The notes under the pieces were generated by a model. It saw only the letters and a program-made list of their open reading frames with translations. It did no database searches and was not told the origin of the DNA. DNA of 64,000 nucleotides. Source: Dehalococcoidia bacterium (GTDB lineage: Bacteria; Chloroflexota; Dehalococcoidia; Lucifugimonadales; UBA1123). Position 1 is the first letter of the stretch. Every line of letters starts with the position of its first letter. Below, in pieces: positions 8,611-22,721 of this stretch. The translations under genes were made by a program, and so were the position numbers. Location: NCBI GenBank assembly GCA_963664365.1, contig OY761144.1:425596-489595 (forward strand), written 5' to 3'.

Positions 8611-8649
8611 GATACAGAGAAGGGGGCAAATTCGAGGATAGGAGTACAA

Positions 8650-9411
8650 ATGGCTGTTTTTCCTCCTACGCGGATGGATGATGATTTGGTCAGAGAGCTA
8701 GAGGCTTTCCTCTCTGACAACGACTTTCCATCTCTCTACAAATCGTATAGCTGGAGAAACGATACTCACAGCGCTGGCTTTCCTGACATACATCGCTTGG
8801 AAGAGCAGATTGGTAGCCATGCAAAGGTCAGTCGTGTCACACTTGATGACATTGTAGGTATAGTATGCTGGGGAGGATCCAACAGTCCGATAACAATTAG
8901 GTGCCCTGACTCACTCGTGAAATTCAACACCATGTTCAGGACAATTGTACCGCCTGACAATAGACGCGTCTCGGATGACCCCCACCTCATGGCAATGCTC
9001 TTGGATAAAGCCGTTTCCGGTATAGGGCCTACCAACGTCAGCAAAGTTCTCCGCTTCGCAATACCTGAGAAGTACGGGGCCGTAGATTCAAGGTGTGTCC
9101 GAGTGTTCGGACTAGGGGATCCGGCCGCCAACGCACATGACTGGATTAAACTGCAGGCTAGAGAGGACACTCCGAACCGTTGGAACATCCAACAGCACAA
9201 GTGGGCCGAAAAATACATACTTTGGATAGACATTTTGGGTCGCCTTGCGCAAAGCCTCAACGAAGACAGGGTAAGGTGCCCTCACCCTGAGAGGTTCGTA
9301 AAGGCTGGCCTGAGAAAGCGAGGCTCTTGGACATGCGCCGATGTCGAGATGGCACTGTTTGCCTATGCGAGTGAAGTGATCGAGTCTAATGGGTGTCTGT
9401 CAATCAGATGA
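8650..9411 (+). CDS. Hypothetical protein, possibly an OGG-fold (8-oxoguanine glycosylase-like fold) accessory protein
   Basis: 253 aa in an AT-richer region. The segment GIGPTNVSKVLRFAIPEKYGAVDSRCVRVFG and the C-terminal TCADVEMALFAY resemble, from memory, the GVG..AS.iL.f..P..y.i.D.R and R.LD.ALW motifs of standalone OGG-fold proteins. Its stop overlaps the next start (ATGA). Confidence 0.35.
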   Translation: MAVFPPTRMDDDLVRELEAFLSDNDFPSLYKSYSWRNDTHSAGFPDIHRLEEQIGSHAKVSRVTLDDIVGIVCWGGSNSPITIRCPDSLVKFNTMFRTIVPPDNRRVSDDPHLMAMLLDKAVSGIGPTNVSKVLRFAIPEKYGAVDSRCVRVFGLGDPAANAHDWIKLQAREDTPNRWNIQQHKWAEKYILWIDILGRLAQSLNEDRVRCPHPERFVKAGLRKRGSWTCADVEMALFAYASEVIESNGCLSIR

Positions 9412-9719
9412 ATGGGCTTGAGGTTCGACGAACCGATGTCTATACACGCTGGTTCAGAGGTCTTCGGGATACGAAAGCGCGCAGGCGCATCAATGCTCGC
9501 ATCCGACGGCTGACAATTGGAAATCCGGGGGACGTGAGGCCAGTAGGTGAAGGTGTTTCAGAGCTCCGTATCGACTACGGTCCCGGCTACCGTGTGTACT
9601 TCATCAGACGGGGCCGATTTCTAATTATTCTGTTGGCAGGAGGCGACAAGGACAGCCAGAATCGTGACATCCGAAGGGCTCTGGAATTGGCGCGTGACAT
9701 GAGGAAGGAGCAACCATGA
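9408..9719 (+). CDS. RelE/ParE-superfamily toxin (addiction module killer protein type)
   Basis: The sequence RWFRGLRDTKARRRINARIRRLTIGNPGDVRPVGEGVSELRIDYGPGYRVYF...LLAGGDKDSQNRDI matches the killer-protein family pattern. ATGA overlaps occur at both ends. Confidence 0.75.
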   Translation: MNGLEVRRTDVYTRWFRGLRDTKARRRINARIRRLTIGNPGDVRPVGEGVSELRIDYGPGYRVYFIRRGRFLIILLAGGDKDSQNRDIRRALELARDMRKEQP

Positions 9720-10111
9720 TAGAGACACACCCTTGGGACCCAACCGAGGGCTTGGATACCGAAGAAGATATGATAGATTACTTGGAGGCAGCTCTTGAGC
9801 TTGACGACCCGTGGCTGGTCGCGGCTGCTCTGACAGACATCGCCAGGGCGAAGGGTATGCCGGAAGTCGCCCAAGAGGTCGGACTTAGCGATGAGAGCAT
9901 GTACGAGTCGAATCGCCGCGGCGACGGGTTGGACTTTGCCATCGTGCTCAAGCTGACGCGCGCGCTTGGACTAAGGCTCCACGCGGGCGGATATGCGCGA
10001 ATCGCCGGCGATCAGGGAGCGCGCGAACCGAGAGCGGCCGACTGCTCCGGCTCTTCCGATGAGGTTGCACTCGACTCGAATTCTGTCGCCGAGTATGCAC
10101 AGGCCAGATGA
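9716..10111 (+). CDS. HigA-type HTH antitoxin (addiction module antidote protein type)
   Basis: Pattern WDPTEGLDTEEDMIDYLEAALELDDPWLVAAALTDIARAKGMPEVAQEVGLSDESMY...LKLTRALGLRL. Toxin-first gene order is typical of HigBA-like pairs. Confidence 0.7.
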   Translation: MIETHPWDPTEGLDTEEDMIDYLEAALELDDPWLVAAALTDIARAKGMPEVAQEVGLSDESMYESNRRGDGLDFAIVLKLTRALGLRLHAGGYARIAGDQGAREPRAADCSGSSDEVALDSNSVAEYAQAR

Positions 10112-10159
10112 ACACGCTTCCCCGTAACCTCGTTCCTATCACATTCGGAGATTGAACAC

Positions 10160-10426
10160 ATGGCAACTGTATTCATCCCGTCACTTATGCAGAAGTTGAG
10201 CGACGGACAGACTAACGTCGAAGTCGAAGGTTCCAATGTCCGACAGATTGTTGACAATCTTGACGCTCGGTATCCCGGCTTCAAGGAGCGCCTCGTCGAG
10301 GACGGCAGGATCAAGGGCAACATCTCAGTCGCCATAGACGGCGAGATAACGCCACTCGGCATTCTTGGCAAGGTGGGCGAGAACAGCGAAGTCCACTTTC
10401 TGCCCGCCCTGGGCGGCGGAGCATGA
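10160..10426 (+). CDS. MoaD/ThiS/CysO-family beta-grasp (ubiquitin-fold) sulfur-carrier-like protein with C-terminus GGGA
   Basis: 88 aa and a paralog of the CysO-like gene at 23075 (shared IP..L....GQ..V...G...R.I.D.....PG.KERL...G). It ends ..LPALGGGA, so one residue follows the Gly-Gly. Confidence 0.65.
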   Translation: MATVFIPSLMQKLSDGQTNVEVEGSNVRQIVDNLDARYPGFKERLVEDGRIKGNISVAIDGEITPLGILGKVGENSEVHFLPALGGGA

Positions 10427-15280: not shown

Positions 15281-15335
15281 GTTGGTTGGTTGGGCGTTTG
15301 ATGTTGCGGGCGGGACGCCCGCGCTCCCAAGGGGG

Positions 15336-15635
15336 TTAGACCCAGATTTTGATTGGGATTCGTTCTATCATCAGTTCGGTAATGGCGTGGACTAGGGCGT
15401 CGGCGCGGTCGGGGGAGCCGGAGGGTCCGAGTTCGGCGGACCAGGTACACATCTGGTCTTCGAGTTCGGGGAAGCGGCCTACGTGGTGGACTCGTCCCTG
15501 CTCGTAGAGGGCGGCTACGTGTTCTTCGAGGAGGTTCTCGTAGGCACGGACGATAGCCATACGCTGCGCGTAAGGAAGGCCGGTCACCTCGGCGGCGATC
15601 TCGGATATTAGGTTGTCAGATGTCAGCGACGTCAT
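15336..15635 (-). pseudogene. Terminase large subunit (TerL) remnant, copy 1 (N-terminal leader fused to the C-terminal end)
   Basis: 99 aa. The C-terminal FPELEDQMCTW....GSPDRADALVHAITELM resembles the conserved C-terminal end of GTA/HK97-type TerL. The N-terminal 45 aa align with copy 2. The ATPase and nuclease core is absent. The start overlaps the upstream stop (ATGA). Confidence 0.5.
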
Positions 15636-16576
15636 GGGTCAGGCGGTTTGTCGTCATCTTCCTGGTCGTCTGAGTGTGACGGGTAGATCTCCTTGTGCTT
15701 CCGCCGGCGGCGTTCTTCGATTTCGGGCCACTGCTTTTGGCGTTCGTATCGCAGGTTGATCTCTTCCCAGAACTTGGCGGCTTCCTCCTTAGCATAGGGA
15801 GTGAGGTCGAAGTCGTCGGGGGGCATGTATTTGGATATGTCTATCTTAGGTCGGTTGGGGTCGGGGTTCAGTTCGCCCTCGTCCTTCATGCGTTGGACTT
15901 CGGCGCGGGCCGCGGCCAGCTTTACGGGGTCAAGGTATTTGACGGGGCGTCGGTAAGGTTTCTTCTCGGCGGGCTCGGGCCGGGTGAGGGCGCGGCCGGT
16001 TCCGAGGATGCGGTCGAGCAGGCTTCGGGCGGCGCGCGTGCGGTGGTAGGCGGTTATGGCCGTGTCTTCGTCGGGTGCGCGGGCTATGTCTTCGAGGGTG
16101 TCTCGGAGGGTCTGGCCGTTGTCGGTGATTTTGAGGATGTATTTTTGGATGGTGGTTAGTGGATGGTGGATAGTGGATAGTTGGTCGTGGTTGGTGGGCG
16201 CGGCCGGGGGCGGGCCGAGGGTGTCGTTTAGGGTGTGTTTGATTTGGGTTACGAGTCTGGGGGAATCGGGTTCAGGTGTGGCGGTTTGGGGCGATTCGTG
16301 AATCGCCCCTACGTCGGTGTCGTCGGTTTGGTTGTCGGTGTCGTCGGTTTGGTTGTCGGTGTCGGAGGCGGGTGACTGTTTGGGGCACTTGCCGAGACCG
16401 TGGTCCATGAGTACGTTGGCGGCGGTGATGCGGTCGTTTGGGTTGGCGCGGTATCCGCCTTGTGAGATTTTGTGGAGGACGTCAATGAGGTCGCGGCCGT
16501 TGTTCGTCTCCGCGAGGGTGGCGTCGGCGAAGTCTTGCGCCGGGTTGGGTGGTGTCTGTTGGGCTGTGGTGGTCAT
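15632..16576 (-). CDS. TerS-like (phage small-terminase-like) multi-copy family protein, copy 1
   Basis: 314 aa with a duplicated module: TNNGRDLIDVLHKISQG...NDRITAANVLMDHGLGK and ITDNGQTLRDTLEDIA...YHRTRAARSLLDRILG. It sits at a terS-terL-type junction. Paralogs lie at 33768-34673 and 60306-61298. Confidence 0.4.
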   Translation of the reverse strand: MTTTAQQTPPNPAQDFADATLAETNNGRDLIDVLHKISQGGYRANPNDRITAANVLMDHGLGKCPKQSPASDTDNQTDDTDNQTDDTDVGAIHESPQTATPEPDSPRLVTQIKHTLNDTLGPPPAAPTNHDQLSTIHHPLTTIQKYILKITDNGQTLRDTLEDIARAPDEDTAITAYHRTRAARSLLDRILGTGRALTRPEPAEKKPYRRPVKYLDPVKLAAARAEVQRMKDEGELNPDPNRPKIDISKYMPPDDFDLTPYAKEEAAKFWEEINLRYERQKQWPEIEERRRRKHKEIYPSHSDDQEDDDKPPDP

Positions 16577-16621
16577 TGGAGTTTTTAGTCTTTAGTAGTT
16601 GGCCGTACTGTTGTGCTGGAT

Positions 16622-16651
16622 AGTATAGAGGGGTGAGAGAACGGATGTCAA
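16622..16651 (-). promoter_or_regulatory. Sigma70-type promoter of TerS-like copy 1
   Basis: The minus strand reads CCCCTTGACA-18 nt-TATACT. The same CCCCTTGACA box precedes copy 2 (34743-34748, -10 TATTCT at 34720-34725, 17-nt spacer), copy 3 (61324-61329) and the trpS T-box leader. Confidence 0.6.
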
Positions 16652-16712
16652 GGGGGTTTTTAGTGGATAGTGGATAGTGGATAGTGGGTAGTTTTTGGTT
16701 ATTGGTGGCGCT

Positions 16713-16930
16713 ATTCACGAAGGGCACGAAGGGGCACTAAGGGTTGTCTGAACTGTGATTTTTGTGATTGGGGTGATTTCGCTGATTGAGTTGGAGGATG
16801 TTCGGGGATTTTAGATTCCTCGCTGCGCTCGGAATGACAGGGTGTGTTGTCCACGAAGGGCACTAAGGGTCACGAAGGGTTGTCTGAACTGTGATTTTTG
16901 TGATTGGGGTGATTTCGCTGATTTTGGGGA
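16713..16930. repeat. Repeat family P3 (CACGAAGGGCRCTAAGGG..GTCTGAACTGTGATT..GGTGATTTCGCTGATT), two tandem copies
   Basis: Near-identical units at about 16713-16790 and 16848-16925. Related copies at 15160-15225, 34812-34945 and, inside a CDS, at 60995-61045. Confidence 0.75.
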
Positions 16931-17161
16931 TTGTCTGAAGCAGGATTTAGGGGATTCCCGCCCGGATGGGACGAGGAGCGCGTCCGCAGCGTTCTTGAAT
17001 ACTACGAATGGCAGACAGAGGATGAAGCCGTGGCGGAAGACGAGGCCGCCTATGAGGACCCGACGCACGCGATGATGACGATTCCCAAAGAACTGGTTCC
17101 TGCGGTCAGGGAGTTGCCGGCGAAACACGACAGTCCACAGTCAACGCCAACCGTAAGCTAA
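16931..17161 (+). CDS. Small conserved hypothetical protein (start uncertain)
   Basis: 76-aa ORF. The segment PPGWDEERVRSVLEYYEWQTEDEAVAEDEAAYED...IPKELVPAVREL resembles a small acidic protein family. The first ~9 codons (TTG start) are repeat-derived, so the true start is unclear. Confidence 0.3.
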   Translation: MSEAGFRGFPPGWDEERVRSVLEYYEWQTEDEAVAEDEAAYEDPTHAMMTIPKELVPAVRELPAKHDSPQSTPTVS

Positions 17162-17259
17162 TCGCCCCCGCTTCGGGCAGAATATCTAGGACGCGATCAG
17201 CCGGGTGTAGGGGGAGTGTTTCATCCTACCCGTAAGGTTAGAGCATCGACTGTTCCCCT

Positions 17260-18334: not shown

Positions 18335-19252
18335 TCAATTGTAATGCCTCTGGAGCTCCGAAGCGTACTCGCTCCCGAGCAGGCTCGCGTTATCGTCCAG
18401 CCACTCCGACAGCCGCGTCGTGCCCGGAGGCGGCTCGCCGGACTTCGACACAAGCAGGTCGGCGGTCAGCCCGTCGATCTCGTCGCGGGTCAGAACCACG
18501 TCCCGCACCAGAAGCCCCATCAGCCTCGCTCCGAGCATGGCTGCCGACCTGCTGACGCTCACCAGCCGCGACGACGCTCCGATCTTTTCTTTGACGAGTT
18601 GCACCAACTCCCGGTAGGTGAACACCTCTGGGCCGACGGCGTCGATCTCTACGTTCTCGCTTTCGGGGGCCAGCTTGACCGCGATGTCGGCTAGGTCTTC
18701 TACGGAGATCGGCTGTACCCTGTATTCACCCGACCCGGCTATCGGGTGGATGGGGAACCTGCGCAGCATCCACGCGATGTTGTTTAGCAGGATGTCCTCG
18801 CGTCCGAATATGAGCGTCGGCCTGAGAATGGCGTAGGACAGCCCGGACTCCCTGAGCGCCTGCTCGGCGAGCGCCTTGCCCCTGAAGTAGGGCAGCGGGG
18901 AGTCTTCGGTCGCGTTGGTTATGCTGACGTGGACGACTCGGCGGACGCCCGCGGTCCTTGCGGCGTCGAACAGCGTCCGCAGGTTCTCGACCGCGCGGTC
19001 GTGAGTCAGATCGCCCTTGGCGAACCTGATCCAGTAGGTGTTGAACAGCGTGTCGGCGCCTTCGAGGCCGGAGGAGAGCGCGTCGGGGTCGTCGAAGCTG
19101 TAAGGGCGCATTTCGACGCGTTCGCCGAACGGGCTGGGGCGGTCCGGGTGGCCTGTCAGCGACCGGACCTCAGCGCCGCCGTCCAGCAGACGCCGGGCGA
19201 TGTACCGGCCGGTATAGCCCGAGGCTCCGGTGACGACGTGGGTCTGGGTCAT
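18335..19252 (-). CDS. NAD(P)H-binding NmrA/atypical-SDR family protein
   Basis: Start MTQTHVVTGASGYTGRYIARRLL at 19252, giving the glycine-rich dinucleotide fold motif TGASGYTG. 305 aa. Confidence 0.75.
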   Translation of the reverse strand: MTQTHVVTGASGYTGRYIARRLLDGGAEVRSLTGHPDRPSPFGERVEMRPYSFDDPDALSSGLEGADTLFNTYWIRFAKGDLTHDRAVENLRTLFDAARTAGVRRVVHVSITNATEDSPLPYFRGKALAEQALRESGLSYAILRPTLIFGREDILLNNIAWMLRRFPIHPIAGSGEYRVQPISVEDLADIAVKLAPESENVEIDAVGPEVFTYRELVQLVKEKIGASSRLVSVSRSAAMLGARLMGLLVRDVVLTRDEIDGLTADLLVSKSGEPPPGTTRLSEWLDDNASLLGSEYASELQRHYN

Positions 19253-19564
19253 GGGTGGGTCTGCCTGAGGTGTCTCTTGCCGGGACGAACACAGTGGTTG
19301 ACCAATCGATAATCTATGATACACTATGTATGATCCATGAACTCGGCAGGGCGGGCTAGCCCGTGACCTGAGAGTACATGGAAGGGGGTGTGCATGTGAT
19401 CAGTGCGTACCTCAGCCATATCGGTATGGCGGTGGCTGGTTGGACGCGGTTACATCGAGCCTAGACACAACGAAGTCTGCGAGCGAGCCATAGCACCACC
19501 GCATTGAGCCGTTGATGGTTCAAGAGCTCGAACGGATATCGGATTTAGACTAAGACCCGCCGAT

Positions 19565-20359
19565 TTAGGTGGGTTTTTGTTTTCCTATCGAATGTATCCG
19601 ACTCGCGTTCTTGGATCCCCGTATGTGGGCGTTCGGGTATATGTTGACATGCCCATTACGTCTTATCTTCCATGTTTCCCATGTATTGGTGATTGTATGA
19701 GAATTACGTTGGGAGGAAACGTCCCAGTGAAATCCTTGGACTAAGGTACGACCTGCGACCTGCAAAATCAGTTGGCCATGCATCTGCTGAGCAGGTGGAC
19801 GCTTCCAGAGTAGTTCATTGTCGTCATACCTTGAGCTCTGCCGTCCATGATCCCGTTCGAATCGTTGCCGACCGTCTGACGTGACTAGATCGTACTTGCC
19901 AAGGTCAGTCTCAAACACATGGAACGGCAGGCAGCGAGGATCGGCCTCGCCTTCGCATCCCACCTCCTGAATCCATGATCGAAAGGCATCAGCGGAATCC
20001 GCCCACTGCTCACTGAATCTATTGGGGCCAATTCGATGGTGGAACGCCTTGTACTGAACGAATCGTCTCAAAGGTACGTAGCGCCTCGGAGAGTTCTTTG
20101 GATTGGGCCTGATGGGCACATTGGCGTCGTTCAACTGCCAGACACCTATACTCCTGGTATGAATGCTCCGGTAGAGGTTGGTCGCATCTTCAGGAGTCAC
20201 CTTTTGGATTGGCCTGCCGGTCGGGAACCTGATCTGGGATGTAGATCGTTCGTAAAGTCTCCAGCCTTCATCCTCGCACTTCGATCTGACTGCATCTCTA
20301 ATGGAGTCTCCGCCTCCCCTGGGATAGAACAGCCAAACCTCGGGAGTCGAATCTGTCAT
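19565..20359 (-). CDS. Hypothetical protein (no recognisable family), second gene of an AT-rich two-gene cassette
   Basis: 264 aa. Its start overlaps the upstream stop (ATGA at 20356-20359). Composition is AT-richer than the flanks. The C-terminal region contains GFHWDVS and GHVNIYPNAHIRG. Confidence 0.5.
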   Translation of the reverse strand: MTDSTPEVWLFYPRGGGDSIRDAVRSKCEDEGWRLYERSTSQIRFPTGRPIQKVTPEDATNLYRSIHTRSIGVWQLNDANVPIRPNPKNSPRRYVPLRRFVQYKAFHHRIGPNRFSEQWADSADAFRSWIQEVGCEGEADPRCLPFHVFETDLGKYDLVTSDGRQRFERDHGRQSSRYDDNELLWKRPPAQQMHGQLILQVAGRTLVQGFHWDVSSQRNSHTITNTWETWKIRRNGHVNIYPNAHIRGSKNASRIHSIGKQKPT

Positions 20360-21261
20360 ACTCTGGACTGTCTCGTCACGCGGAGTACGGCCTCGCTAGG
20401 TAGGCTGAGCCCCGACAACTCTTCGTGAGTCATCTTGCGAACCACTGCTATGACCAACTCTCTGAGCCCTTCTGTTTCGGAAGGACTTCTCACCGGCCGC
20501 CTATTGGCTGACGACGCCATATCGTCAGGAGGTTCTAATCCAGAATCAGAAAACCATCTCTGAAGGTGAGCAAACACTTTGTCACGAAAGAATCGGTTCC
20601 ACTTGGGTATCAACTGAGTGGGTAGGCGAGATGTTCCAAGATGTAGTTGTATCCACTCTTTAGTCTGCTCCACCTCCATATGGGTCAGTTCGAGTGTGCG
20701 CGTCACCTCGCTAAGGAACTCCTGCCGCCATTCGCGCTGGAGATCGGCAGTAACAGTGTCGATAACTGGGTTGCGGTCAAAGTCCTGCCCGGGTCTGGCA
20801 TCCTTCCTGGCAATGTCCCATACGTAGGTCGTTCCGCTCGAGTAGTCCAGCACAGCCTGCCAGAGGTCGGACCTTATATGATATGTGGTCGATGTGTAGT
20901 CAGTACCCGCGGGCGATAGCTGGTCCGCATCTATACTGAACAACTCAACGATCGGCGGGAATACAGAGTCATCCACCCGTAGAGTATCCGGGTAGCGAGA
21001 CACGAAGTCCATGAAACTGGACGCGCCGTATTGGGACTCATTGAACTTCCGTCGAGTCACGTCGAGCAATCTATTCTTCAGAACCGCTGTCGTCATCCGA
21101 CGCCAATCCGGTTTGCCTGAGCTACGCGCCTCTTGAAATGCACGAGTTATCAGACGCTCAGCGTCCTGAGACTTCTCCGCCAAATCTTGGGGCAGAGTGC
21201 CACCGTCCGGAAGTTGCTGGTACGGCGATCCGCCTGATTCTTTTATCTCCTGGCCGCCCAT
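20356..21261 (-). CDS. OST-HTH/LOTUS-like domain protein with an unknown C-terminal domain
   Basis: 301 aa. The segment KPDWRRMTTAVLKNRLLDVTRRKFNESQYGASSFMDFVSRYPDTLRVD fits the OST-HTH pattern (W..ls.l...l......F....yG...l.dfl...pd). Confidence 0.45.
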   Translation of the reverse strand: MGGQEIKESGGSPYQQLPDGGTLPQDLAEKSQDAERLITRAFQEARSSGKPDWRRMTTAVLKNRLLDVTRRKFNESQYGASSFMDFVSRYPDTLRVDDSVFPPIVELFSIDADQLSPAGTDYTSTTYHIRSDLWQAVLDYSSGTTYVWDIARKDARPGQDFDRNPVIDTVTADLQREWRQEFLSEVTRTLELTHMEVEQTKEWIQLHLGTSRLPTQLIPKWNRFFRDKVFAHLQRWFSDSGLEPPDDMASSANRRPVRSPSETEGLRELVIAVVRKMTHEELSGLSLPSEAVLRVTRQSRV

Positions 21262-21497
21262 AGCGCCTCACCATCCTCGGACACATTATAACCTGCCAGC
21301 CTCAACTCCCATTCTAGCCCCGCCTTAGATTCTTGACAACGCGATTGGCCCGTTGATACGATTCCGATGCTCAAATCCCTTCTTGTAGTGAAGCAGGCTG
21401 ACGCCGGTTTCCCCTCGCTTCAGGCCCGTCGTCCCGTTGCGCTTTGACGGCGGCCCTAGCATGAGAGGACGCCCGCGCACGATGGAGGATCGCGTAC

Positions 21498-22721
21498 TTG
21501 TCCCACGTAAGCTGTCTGCGCTGCCGAGGGTGCGACAGGGAGTACCCAGTCGAAGCCCTCAACGCGTGCGACTTCTGCTTTGGGCCGCTGGAGGTCGAGT
21601 ACGACTACGCCAGCATCTCCAAGGCGGTCAGCCGCGAGAGCATCGCCGCCGGCCCCAACACCATGTGGCGCTACCACGACTTTCTGCCCGTGACCGCGGA
21701 CCGCGCGCTGGACATGGCGACCGGCTTCACCCCGCTGATACACGCGCATAACCTGGGCAGGCGTCTGGGCCTGAGCAACCTATACGTCAAGAACGACAGC
21801 GTCAACCCAACGTACTCATTCAAGGACAGGGTCGTATCGGTCGCCGCGGCAAAGGCGCTGGAGTTCGAGTTCGACACGTTCGCCTGCGCGTCCACCGGCA
21901 ACCTGATGGGTTCGGTCGCGGCGCACGGGGCCAAGGCCGGAGTGCCGACGGTGGTCTTCTTCCCCGCCAACCTCGAGAAGGGCAAGGTGCTCGGAGCGGG
22001 CGTCTATGGCGCGACCCTCATCGCCGTGGACGGCACTTACGACCAGGTCAACCGGCTGTGCAGCGAACTGGCCGACAATCACCGCTGGGCGTTCGTCAAC
22101 GTCAACATGCGGCCATACTACGCCGAGGGCAGCAAGACGCTCGGCTACGAGGTCGCCGAGCAGCTTGGCTGGCAGGCGCCCGACCACTGCGTCGTGCCCG
22201 GCGCGTCCGGCGAGTTGTTCACCAAGATACACAAGGGCTTCACAGAGATGCTCGACGTGGGCCTGATCGACGAGGCGGACTCGCGGATGCACATAGCGCA
22301 GGCCGAGGGCTGCGCTCCCATCGTCCAGGCATACGAGCGCGGCGATACCGAGGCGCTGCCCGTCCGTCCGGACACCATCGCCAAGTCGCTCGCCATAGGC
22401 AACCCTGCGTCAGGCCCGTTCGCGCTCAGGACTATCCGCGACTCCGACGGCTCCGGCGTCATGGCTATGGAGAACGAGATAGTGGACGGCATCAAGCTGC
22501 TGGCCGAGACTGAGGGCATCTTCACCGAGACGGCGGGCGGAGTTGTTATTTCCGGTCTGAAGCGCCTCGTCGAAGACGGCACGATCGGCCCGGACGACCT
22601 CACCGTGGCATACGTCACCGGCAACGGCCTGAAGACCATGGAGGTCGTCGAGTCCGTTGTCGATACGGTGCGGATAGCCCCGACGTATGGCTCGTTCGAA
22701 GAAGCGATGGCGGCCCGATAG
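21498..22721 (+). CDS. Threonine synthase-family PLP enzyme (ThrC or ThrC-like MetM candidate)
   Basis: TTG start 8 nt after GGAGGA. N-terminal zinc-ribbon CLRCRGCDREY...CDFC, the PLP-lysine region NPTYSFKDR and glycine-rich loops. 407 aa. Confidence 0.8.
   Translation: MSHVSCLRCRGCDREYPVEALNACDFCFGPLEVEYDYASISKAVSRESIAAGPNTMWRYHDFLPVTADRALDMATGFTPLIHAHNLGRRLGLSNLYVKNDSVNPTYSFKDRVVSVAAAKALEFEFDTFACASTGNLMGSVAAHGAKAGVPTVVFFPANLEKGKVLGAGVYGATLIAVDGTYDQVNRLCSELADNHRWAFVNVNMRPYYAEGSKTLGYEVAEQLGWQAPDHCVVPGASGELFTKIHKGFTEMLDVGLIDEADSRMHIAQAEGCAPIVQAYERGDTEALPVRPDTIAKSLAIGNPASGPFALRTIRDSDGSGVMAMENEIVDGIKLLAETEGIFTETAGGVVISGLKRLVEDGTIGPDDLTVAYVTGNGLKTMEVVESVVDTVRIAPTYGSFEEAMAAR

Follow-up and report, generated by a model that had tools for sequence, protein, structure and literature searches.

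The 64,000-nucleotide stretch analysed here, referred to as the window (contig OY761144.1 of assembly GCA_963664365.1, from a Dehalococcoidia bacterium of the Chloroflexota; all coordinates are those of the window unless a related locus is named), carries two minus-strand genes for proteins of 301 aa (P1) and 264 aa (P2), and downstream of P2 a convergent gene for a structured RNA of ~255 nt. That these form a three-part cassette and that the RNA gene is real we regard as near certain. As to what the cassette does, we lean towards a mobile ribonucleoprotein module of genetic conflict, similar in its logic to toxin-antitoxin systems, a functional reading to which we give a little less than an even chance. 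The features concerned are the following.

19298–19325, plus strand: promoter-like site of the RNA gene (−35 TTGACC, 16-nt spacer, TG-extended −10 TACACT), from a promoter scan
19331–19587, plus strand: structured non-coding RNA gene, ~255 nt, convergent with P2; conserved core 19331–19533, 3′ end in the terminator and T tail
19552–19577, no strand: bidirectional intrinsic terminator hairpin, common to the RNA gene and the P1-P2 operon, overlapping the P2 stop codon (19565–19567)
19565–20359, minus strand: P2 open reading frame, 264 aa; presumed enzyme or effector
19568–19963, minus strand: P2 C-domain, residues 133 to about 260–264, beta-rich, with the signature residues of the family
19964–20359, minus strand: P2 N-domain, residues 1–132, Rossmann/flavodoxin-like alpha/beta, with conserved Y63, H67 and K104
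20356–21261, minus strand: P1 open reading frame, 301 aa; LOTUS/OST-HTH winged helix and helical C-terminal part
20932–21114, minus strand: LOTUS/OST-HTH-like winged helix of P1, about residues 50–110
21311–21339, minus strand: promoter-like site of the P1-P2 operon (TTGTCA, 17-nt spacer, TAGAAT; 10 of 12 matches in the scan), sigma-70-like

A convergent RNA gene

An earlier note on this DNA had described a unit of two translationally coupled minus-strand genes. Both genes are real and coupled: the open reading frames overlap by 4 nt (ATGA), an overlap found identically in six related loci (L001, L003, L045, L048, L049 and L050; L-numbers denote related loci), and 29 of 37 species loci have retained the two side by side, for which reasons we treat P1 and P2 as one unit. 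What that description missed is the third part, the structured RNA gene that converges on the pair from downstream of P2.

The 200–260 nt past the P2 stop codon are conserved at the nucleotide level across unrelated sites and phyla; upstream of P1, no nucleotide conservation across contexts was found. Read on the strand opposite to P2, the element consists of a promoter, a 5′ (U/C)GAUC, a variable hairpin, a multi-helix core, and a GC hairpin with a T tail. Its core is better conserved than both coding sequences in every comparison, with 82% identity against 70–74% between the window and L001, and 66% against 43–56% between the window and the Spirochaetia locus L022.

The pattern of substitutions follows a secondary structure. 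For 16 Chloroflexota-type copies, RNAalifold predicted 32 base pairs with 94.3% of the cells paired, compared to 33–52% in slid controls, in which the partners were shifted by 1–3 columns; 18 of the pairs have changed on both sides, and none of 500 shuffles reached the observed values. On the plus strand 94.3% of the cells are canonical pairs and 16% are G-U, as opposed to 79% and 1% on the opposite strand, and this asymmetry of the G-U pairs identifies the plus strand as the transcribed one. In a larger alignment of 42 matches, 90.3% of the cells are paired, against 36–42% when the partners are slid, and compensatory changes are seen at 29 of the 32 pairs, figures that carry less weight as that alignment was fitted to the structure of the model and the pair counts are thus biased towards it. 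An all-phyla MAFFT alignment gave two helices only in RNAalifold, which we attribute to misalignment. The window RNA itself has a minimum free energy of −105.8 kcal/mol (z = −3.76).

The element contains no conserved open reading frame: in none of the 16 Chloroflexota-type copies is any frame of the RNA strand free of stops, and within the conserved core the lengths of the copies vary by 1–2 nt, both of which argue that it is non-coding. A search of 19150–21500 against Rfam release 15 returned noise alone (E > 2), and Rfam searches of the Acidobacteriota, Gammaproteobacteria and Actinomycetota loci returned nothing except a tRNA. There is no tandem-repeat array in 19200–21500, and no hypervariable guide-like segment was identified in the RNA beyond the variable peripheral hairpin.

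Signals for transcription bracket the element. In an alignment of 18 loci from five phyla the −10 box TAnnnT of the RNA promoter is invariant and is preceded by a −35 of the form TTGAC/TTGC, and cross-context conservation stops just past this promoter. A strict promoter scan of L001 and L024 found no site; outside the window the promoter evidence is this conservation in the alignment. The terminator was scored on the plus strand in the window, and the same hairpin on both strands in L001. Its A-run, GC hairpin and T-run are kept in all groups, the stem with compensatory changes, and since the A-run lies on one side and the T-run on the other, the hairpin can end both convergent transcripts. 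RNA and mRNA thereby overlap by ~35 nt at the terminator, while the covarying core of ~200 nt lies outside the overlap. A 14-nt segment of the core, ATTGAGCCGTTGAT (19503–19516), recurs on the same strand with 2 mismatches as ATTGGCCCGTTGAT at 21344–21357, just upstream of the P1 promoter, which may be due to chance.

Occurrence and transcription of the RNA

A covariance model built from Chloroflexota-type copies (R1) matched the window RNA with 195 bits (E = 5e-50). It also found the RNA in remnant loci and, weakly, in Acidobacteriota, in L006 and in Actinomycetota, always at the same place and on the same strand. A model built from the other groups (R2), which is little more than a sequence profile because the RNAalifold consensus of its MAFFT alignment had 5 pairs, matched the Chloroflexota copies reciprocally. 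The iterated model R3 detected the RNA in 40 of 46 sources, 32 of these at E < 1e-10; elsewhere in the 881 kb it gave two stray hits, both weak. Once L023 (matched by R2 alone) is added, 41 of 46 loci have the RNA in this position and on this strand.

Short contigs matching the RNA were found in X6, a public run labelled ‘RNA?’. One of 248 nt spans 19354–19590 (depth 16), one of 167 nt covers 19387–19533 (depth 52) and then enters an A-run, and one of 221 nt represents a different variant. The summed depth is 66–69 over the RNA, 0 over P2 and no more than 2.5 over P1 and the flanks, so that the RNA contigs stand at 25–70 times the depth of the neighbouring genes. These sizes and depths are probably what an abundant small RNA would give, although this argument is weakened by a run type that was guessed as RNA, by contigs that carry no strand, and by the origin of the molecules, which are 84–91% identical to the window RNA and come from relatives, hence from organisms other than this one. 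In the most abundant contig (record 17) the match breaks off at 19533, the last base of the core, and is followed by a run of A residues without a template, AAAAAAAAAAAAAGGAGAG, which could reflect polyadenylation of a processing or decay product, or an artefact of the library.

Extent and composition of the unit

Comparison of copies in unrelated contexts delimits the unit. L015, on a gammaproteobacterial chromosome, and L016, on a Gemmatimonadota contig, have as their sole common DNA a stretch of 1,927 bp (90% identity) that begins with the −35 of the P1 promoter and ends shortly after the RNA promoter. The corresponding stretch is 1,967 bp (84%) between L028 and L031, which are on the same Acidobacteriaceae contig, and 1,832 bp (73%) between L001 and L045, which occupy different Dehalococcoidia sites. 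The DNA common to such pairs starts at the −35-like hexamer upstream of P1, and the unit thus measures ~1.9 kb (1.83–1.97 kb) from promoter to promoter. The copies L028:9149–11109 and L031:9090–11054 (contig CAWENG010000004.1) are two full cassettes 1.4 Mb apart with unrelated flanks. Neither in the window nor at the boundaries that were compared do terminal repeats or target duplications mark the ends, no third conserved protein gene lies beside P1-P2, and no transposase or integrase gene accompanies the unit.

The AT-rich composition that had been perceived by eye is deviant when computed, and foreign-like. The pair lies about 7 GC points below its flanks. GC is 0.51–0.55 over P1-P2 and 0.62–0.67 on both sides; against the rest of the window the values are 0.533 and 0.606, and the pair ranks 7th lowest among 624 sliding windows of equal length. 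The same holds in other genomes, where P1-P2 lies below its flanks in 43 of 44 loci, by a mean of 6.6 points. The metabolic neighbours named in the earlier note are likewise borne out by the relatives, in which the cassette is flanked by a ThrC-type pyridoxal-phosphate enzyme, followed by NIL and ThiS genes, on one side and by an NmrA/epimerase-type SDR on the other.

Distribution, insertion sites and decay

A scan of one genome per GTDB species (185,579 species genomes) yielded 37 loci, a lower bound as the scan was pattern-based. Carriers belong to the Chloroflexota (Dehalococcoidia, SAR202), Acidobacteriota, Gemmatimonadota, Gammaproteobacteria, a ‘delta proteobacterium’, Myxococcales, Spirochaetia and Actinomycetota; the cassette occurs in at least eight phyla. 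At least one carrier is a cultured isolate, Cellulosimicrobium arenosum KCTC 49039 (Actinomycetota; L040). Bins can be mis-assigned, and single cross-phylum cases need care. L039, binned as Nocardioides sp., is 91–92% identical to L040 over at least 6.5 kb, cassette and flanks included; either the contig was binned wrongly, it would seem, or a large piece of DNA was transferred very recently.

Within the Chloroflexota at least five different insertion sites are occupied. The cassette lies between ThrC-like/NIL/ThiS genes and SDR/ADH genes (window, L045, L046, L048), between his genes and HSP20 (L001, as well as L049, whose copy at this site is turned round), between RsfS and NDK (L003–L005), between a tautomerase gene and TrpS (L050), and near EPSP synthase (L051). 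At the his operon / HSP20-DnaJ site, the opposite orientations of L001:7141–9034 and L049:9141–11039 relative to the flanks point either to independent insertions at a hotspot or to an inversion in place; the L049 cassette is adjoined by four extra unknown genes and a ResIII fragment.

The P2 tree clusters mostly by phylum, with 6 label changes where the minimum is 5, and transfer over long range is for this reason rare; the unit moves often inside a phylum and seldom from one phylum to another. One exception in the tree is a Gammaproteobacteria/Gemmatimonadota pair that sits within the Vicinamibacterales. In the clade of the window the insertion is old and vertically kept rather than recent, as relatives with 69–77% identity carry the unit at the same ThrC/SDR site.

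In 29 of the 37 species loci the gene immediately upstream of P2 is P1; the other 8 (22%) are visibly degraded. In L014, L022, L041 and L044 deletions took P1 and/or the P2 N-domain, with the open reading frame of the C-domain still open and the RNA intact; all C-domain motifs are kept in L014, L022 and L041, and L044 has lost CEGE-DPRCLPFH and kept the rest. There is no locus with an intact P2 after clear loss of the RNA. In the short variants L022:9003–10670 and L041:9699–10614, P2 is the C-domain alone (119–146 aa, all motifs present) with its own start codon just before CEGE-DPRCLPFH, the RNA is intact, and P1 is truncated, in L041 to the LOTUS part only. These short forms may be functional minimal versions rather than debris. 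A different kind of damage is seen in Candidatus Aldehydirespirator (L043:8572–10001), where an insertion of ~1.4 kb with a minus-strand open reading frame (8634–10232) splits P2 and leaves P1 intact.

The LOTUS protein P1

The OST-HTH-like segment that had been recognised in the first protein is confirmed by profile and by structure. The match of the window P1 to PF12872 (E = 0.005, 17.2 bits) falls under the gathering score of 23.8 bits, yet 22 of 49 members of the P1 family match this profile (E <= 0.01, the best at E = 1.3e-6); from the two together, the family is a divergent branch of OST-HTH/LOTUS. The AlphaFold2 model of P1 (mean predicted local distance difference test score, pLDDT, 87.3) superposes in Foldseek on the LOTUS domains of TDRD7 (2lh9; probability 0.99, template modelling (TM) score 0.63) and Tejas (8wxs; 0.97, TM score 0.70) and on the bacterial OST-HTH protein NE0665 (2kpm; 0.97), and 3rco and 5yad match too. 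The E-values of these matches are weak (0.07–0.8) because a single domain of the model aligns.

The remaining ~190 residues of P1, a small alpha/beta unit and the helical C-terminal part, have no structure or profile match. A profile search with P1 against the PDB sequences gave noise alone, and beyond the sub-threshold OST-HTH hit in Pfam there was no match in Pfam, NCBIfam, PADLOC or PHROGs. Homologues fall into 115 clusters. The core of the family begins near residue 31 of the window open reading frame. Many columns are invariant in both P1 and P2, a clear sign of purifying selection. The P1 proteins of the closest relatives are 411–431 aa long (L045:6769–8004, L048:6709–8004) and have an extra N-terminal part of ~110 aa (MGFWEDVYRLREEGLIPRVW...), which is missing from most family members. 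The window P1 begins past this extension, and the gap to the ThrC-like gene measures 236 bp (21262–21497); from the short gap and the late start, the extension has been either lost here or gained in the relatives.

OST-HTH has been predicted to bind structured RNA (PMC2848206), and its bacterial versions have been described as RNA-directed proteins that stand alone and have spread laterally (Anantharaman, Zhang and Aravind 2010, PMC2848206). Nearly all bacterial OST-HTH domains are fused to an LK-nuclease domain (PMC2848206). P1 resembles such LabA/NYN (LK-nuclease, DUF88) proteins in its OST-HTH/LOTUS winged helix but lacks the LK-nuclease, and P2 shows neither PIN/NYN similarity nor the acidic motifs; an associated RNA gene is not described in PMC2848206. 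Specifically, the LK-nuclease domain PF01936 (NYN/DUF88) had no match in P1 or P2 at E <= 1 and was absent from searches of 42 P2 and 49 P1 relatives, and there were no PIN/NYN structures among the top Foldseek hits of either model.

A functional precedent comes from SzsA, a LOTUS-domain protein reported in a 2026 preprint to defend Pseudomonas aeruginosa against RNA phages and proposed to recruit effectors to RNA in this role (bioRxiv 10.64898/2026.04.06.716636). The precedent lies in the common LOTUS domain rather than in a demonstrated homology to P1, and the passage of the preprint consulted mentions neither a P2-type enzyme nor an RNA gene.

The two-domain protein P2

The second protein had been described as lacking a recognisable family, and this assessment survived every search. 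P2 has no match in Pfam, NCBIfam, PADLOC or PHROGs, the same is true of 42 aligned relatives in Pfam, and Foldseek of the model against PDB and BFVD gave nothing at E <= 0.001. The AlphaFold2 model is nevertheless a confident one (pLDDT 92.5, predicted TM score 0.88). Its top Foldseek hits (Rossmann-like, flavodoxin, SLOG and TIR folds, E > 0.03) cover the generic N-domain only. The relatives make up 76 clusters at a level of 90% identity, and at 50% there are 347 representatives; all are of ~250–300 aa and none is annotated; among those listed there is no fusion to other domains.

Conservation was tabulated over 133 representatives with a mutual identity of at most 50%. The polar residues Y63, H67, K104, C135, D140, R142, R177, D179, H194, H211, D213, N239 and R247 are each retained in 89% or more of them; position 243 is always D or N, and the tryptophans W185, W212 and W230 are kept as well. 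The signature of the C-domain comprises D140, R142, R177, D179, W185, H194, H211, W212, D213, W230, N239, D/N243 and R247, a pattern that suggests a catalytic or ligand-binding site. The His-containing motifs pointed out in the earlier note are real and strongly conserved across the family, as GFHWDVS and G(H/Y)VNIYP(N/D)AHIR. A nuclease or RNase-type active site, which that note had thought they could form, is unproven, and no nuclease fold or family was detected.

Candidate identities were judged by eye against the same conservation table. A weak profile hit (E = 0.1) to PeiW (8jx4), a transglutaminase-like cysteine peptidase, aligns H194 and D213 with the His and Asp of PeiW; it was dropped as the position of the catalytic Cys is Arg164 in the window P2 and variable across the family, and 8jx4 is not within the top 50 Foldseek hits of the P2 model. 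PD-(D/E)xK fails on the K of ExWK, which is not conserved, a cupin or 2-oxoglutarate-oxygenase motif (HxD...H) on the variable H245, and a Zn site formed by C135 and C143 on the variable C143. For HEPN (Rx4-6H), 2H phosphoesterase (HxT/S), HKD, kinase (HxDxxxxN) and H-Y-E ADP-ribosyltransferase the needed residues are absent or unconserved.

Genomic context

A setting in defence islands, which would fit the defence or toxin role suggested earlier, does not appear to be general. Three genes on either side at 35 loci give 215 flanking genes, mostly metabolic, in which no family recurs more than 3 times; a handful of PADLOC hits (raw counts) includes DISARM DrmD and DrmMI in L006. PADLOC-DB 2.0 has no family for P1 or P2 at E <= 1. 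Individual exceptions exist: one copy of the cassette lies within an island carrying an integrase, a Prim-Pol, and DISARM DrmD and DrmMI, and some contexts contain restriction-modification, GmrSD, HD-dGTPase, Schlafen/AlbA or PIN genes within 2–8 kb.

In the relatives of the window, a variable defence-type insert lies two genes away from the cassette, between ADH and CoA-transferase genes (L045:11310–13506, L046:11938–13968, L048:11171–12517; the equivalent in the window is at ~15300–17200). Depending on the relative, the insert encodes a methyltransferase next to the restriction enzyme Bpu10I, a GmrSD_N plus Schlafen/AlbA protein, or an HD/HD_assoc dGTPase-like product. This spot looks like a variable-island hotspot.

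A proposed conflict module and its alternatives

The locus is a self-contained and horizontally mobile cassette of ~1.9 kb set between two inward-facing promoters. One promoter drives the translationally coupled P1-P2 operon and the other the convergent structured RNA of ~255 nt, and both transcripts end at the single bidirectional terminator. In the functional reading that we favour, with the reserve expressed at the outset, P1 would bind this RNA via its LOTUS/OST-HTH winged helix. The C-domain of P2 would be an enzyme with a His/Asp/Arg/Asn site (H194, H211, D213, N239, D140, R142, R177, D179) that acts on, or is restrained by, the complex of RNA and P1. As a selfish or conflict unit, whether like toxin-antitoxin systems or like abortive infection, the cassette would use the RNA as a neutralising or licensing partner and P2 as its effector. 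We infer that its function is not a housekeeping one. The points in favour are that the unit is compact, has its own promoters, is patchy in distribution, occupies many sites, can be present in more than one copy, is low in GC in 43 of 44 hosts and is degraded in 22% of species loci; one copy sits in the DISARM island, and the relatives of the window have the variable defence hotspot two genes off. The pattern of decay, in which RNA and C-domain are kept, is suggestive.

A more novel possibility, which we consider doubtful, is a new class of RNA-centred conflict system in which the RNA held by the LOTUS domain is guide, scaffold, substrate or switch for an enzyme of unseen fold. Its minimal working core, to judge from the short variants L022 and L041, would consist of the RNA, the LOTUS domain and the C-domain of P2. 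In the boldest version, covered by the same doubtful estimate, the RNA would guide the enzyme to targets of nucleic acid or even mobilise the 1.9-kb unit.

By analogy the cassette would seem to work most like a type III toxin-antitoxin system (ToxIN, CptIN, TenpIN), with which it has in common a compact mobile cassette, a dedicated abundant RNA gene, a terminator before the effector gene and an accessory distribution, yet it departs from such systems in repeat array, orientation and toxin family. Its RNA is a single multi-helix molecule of ~255 nt and not a set of short tandem repeats; it is convergent and downstream of P2, whereas type III RNA precedes the toxin gene and shares its strand; a LOTUS-domain protein is present in addition; and neither P2 nor its 42 relatives match ToxN/AbiQ, CptN, TenpN or any other family.

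Several observations weigh against a conflict module. The flanking genes are predominantly metabolic and only a few belong to PADLOC families, P2 has no match to toxin, nuclease or defence models, and the cassette is absent from IMG/VR viral contigs, PLSDB plasmids and GenBank phages (INPHARED). The closest relatives keep the unit intact at the ThrC/SDR site, and retention at a single site through 23–31% protein divergence would also fit a useful host function, as would a P2 tree that largely follows phylum. Toxicity, binding and catalysis of the parts are themselves predictions. Full-text searches that combined OST-HTH or LOTUS with toxin-antitoxin systems, defence against phages or RNA motifs turned up no account of the cassette.

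Much of this can be turned into an explanation of its own, in which the cassette is a host-beneficial ribonucleoprotein of RNA metabolism, accessory but neither selfish nor toxic, with the RNA as scaffold or adaptor for processing, repair or modification. The model for such logic is Ro60 (Rsr), a protein whose gene adjoins Y RNA genes, which forms a ribonucleoprotein and is sporadically distributed. The cassette likewise has a protein gene beside a dedicated structured RNA gene and a sporadic distribution; it differs from Ro60 in lacking a TROVE or vWA domain and a Y RNA or Rfam match, and in including a putative enzyme. Purifying selection on both proteins, the intact unit in relatives of 69–77% protein identity, the mostly housekeeping neighbourhoods, the absence from phages and plasmids, the tree, and an RNA that is abundant relative to the mRNAs, as expected of a stable ribonucleoprotein RNA, all suit this explanation. 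It accounts poorly, however, for a very sparse and patchy occurrence (the 37 loci being a lower bound), for varied insertion sites in both orientations with two diverged copies in one genome, for degradation in 22% of species loci and for a persistently low GC; moreover, no TROVE/Ro, RtcB or other RNA-repair domain was detected in Pfam and NCBIfam searches of P1 and P2 or in the Pfam search of 42 P2 relatives. We therefore hold a role in RNA metabolism to be unlikely.

We think it rather improbable that, as the earlier note pictured them, the two proteins form a toxin or defence module on their own and that the convergent RNA is merely an antisense regulator, acting via the 3′ end of the P1-P2 mRNA at the terminator. 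Convergent type I pairs such as txpA/RatA and bsrG/SR4 of Bacillus subtilis, in which antisense pairing occurs at the 3′ end of the mRNA, set the example: the cassette resembles them in a convergent RNA of ~200 nt whose 3′ end overlaps the mRNA 3′ end, here at the terminator hairpin and the P2 stop codon, and the RNA seems far more abundant than the mRNAs, as antitoxin RNAs are. Yet the overlap is confined to the ~35-nt terminator, and what is conserved is the non-overlapping structured core, ~200 nt of covarying sequence that antisense pairing does not need; the RNA is also more conserved than the genes it supposedly regulates. Type I toxins are small membrane peptides, in contrast to the soluble proteins of 301 and 264 aa found here; P2 is a two-domain protein and no small hydrophobic peptide, and the module includes a domain predicted to bind RNA.

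An autonomous mobile element, with P2 as a recombinase or nuclease of new fold, P1 as a DNA-binding partner and the RNA as guide or bridge, would follow the logic of IS110 with its bridge RNAs or of TnpB/IscB with their omega RNAs, in which a structured RNA of ~200 nt adjoins the protein gene. A discrete 1.9-kb unit with sharp, reproducible ends, which is the sole DNA common to unrelated contexts, and the occupation of one intergenic site in both orientations in two lineages are what such an element would produce, and an RNA of this kind beside a protein gene is typical of this class. It is nonetheless very unlikely, as genomes hold 1–2 copies, the copies within one genome are 84% identical with no sign of recent transposition, terminal inverted repeats and target duplications are missing from the window and the compared boundaries, the RNA has no hypervariable guide-like segment beyond its peripheral hairpin, and no similarity to DEDD, RuvC, HUH, serine- or tyrosine-recombinases was found in the P2 family and fold searches.

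Finally, it is extremely improbable that the stretch downstream of P2 is a small protein gene or a DNA-level site instead of an RNA gene: some copies do have a stop-free frame of 50–60 codons, but each RNA-strand frame is interrupted by at least one stop in all 16 Chloroflexota-type copies, the core varies in length by 1–2 nt, the helices show compensatory changes and a G-U strand asymmetry, and a promoter and a terminator bracket an element that short, transcript-sized contigs match.

Significance

The cassette matches no known toxin-antitoxin, defence or RNA family. Two of its three parts have no described relatives, namely the RNA, which belongs to no Rfam family, and P2, which in spite of a confident model has no neighbour in Pfam, PDB or BFVD; the third is a stand-alone bacterial LOTUS protein, from a class of domains whose bacterial biology is almost wholly prediction. 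Annotation scans that consider genes only will miss the RNA, and the module is then misread as a two-gene operon.

A covarying and apparently abundant RNA of ~250 nt, tied to two proteins in at least eight phyla, represents a ribonucleoprotein that is ready for dissection, and a cultured carrier, Cellulosimicrobium arenosum KCTC 49039, makes the question directly testable. Its study could bring to light an enzyme activity towards RNA or nucleotides that is new, a novel kind of RNA antitoxin or RNA-licensed defence, and the ancestral job of the LOTUS domain. If the more novel, RNA-centred reading is true, bacteria would possess a combination of LOTUS domain, RNA and effector comparable to the RNA granule machinery that animal germ cells build on LOTUS domains.

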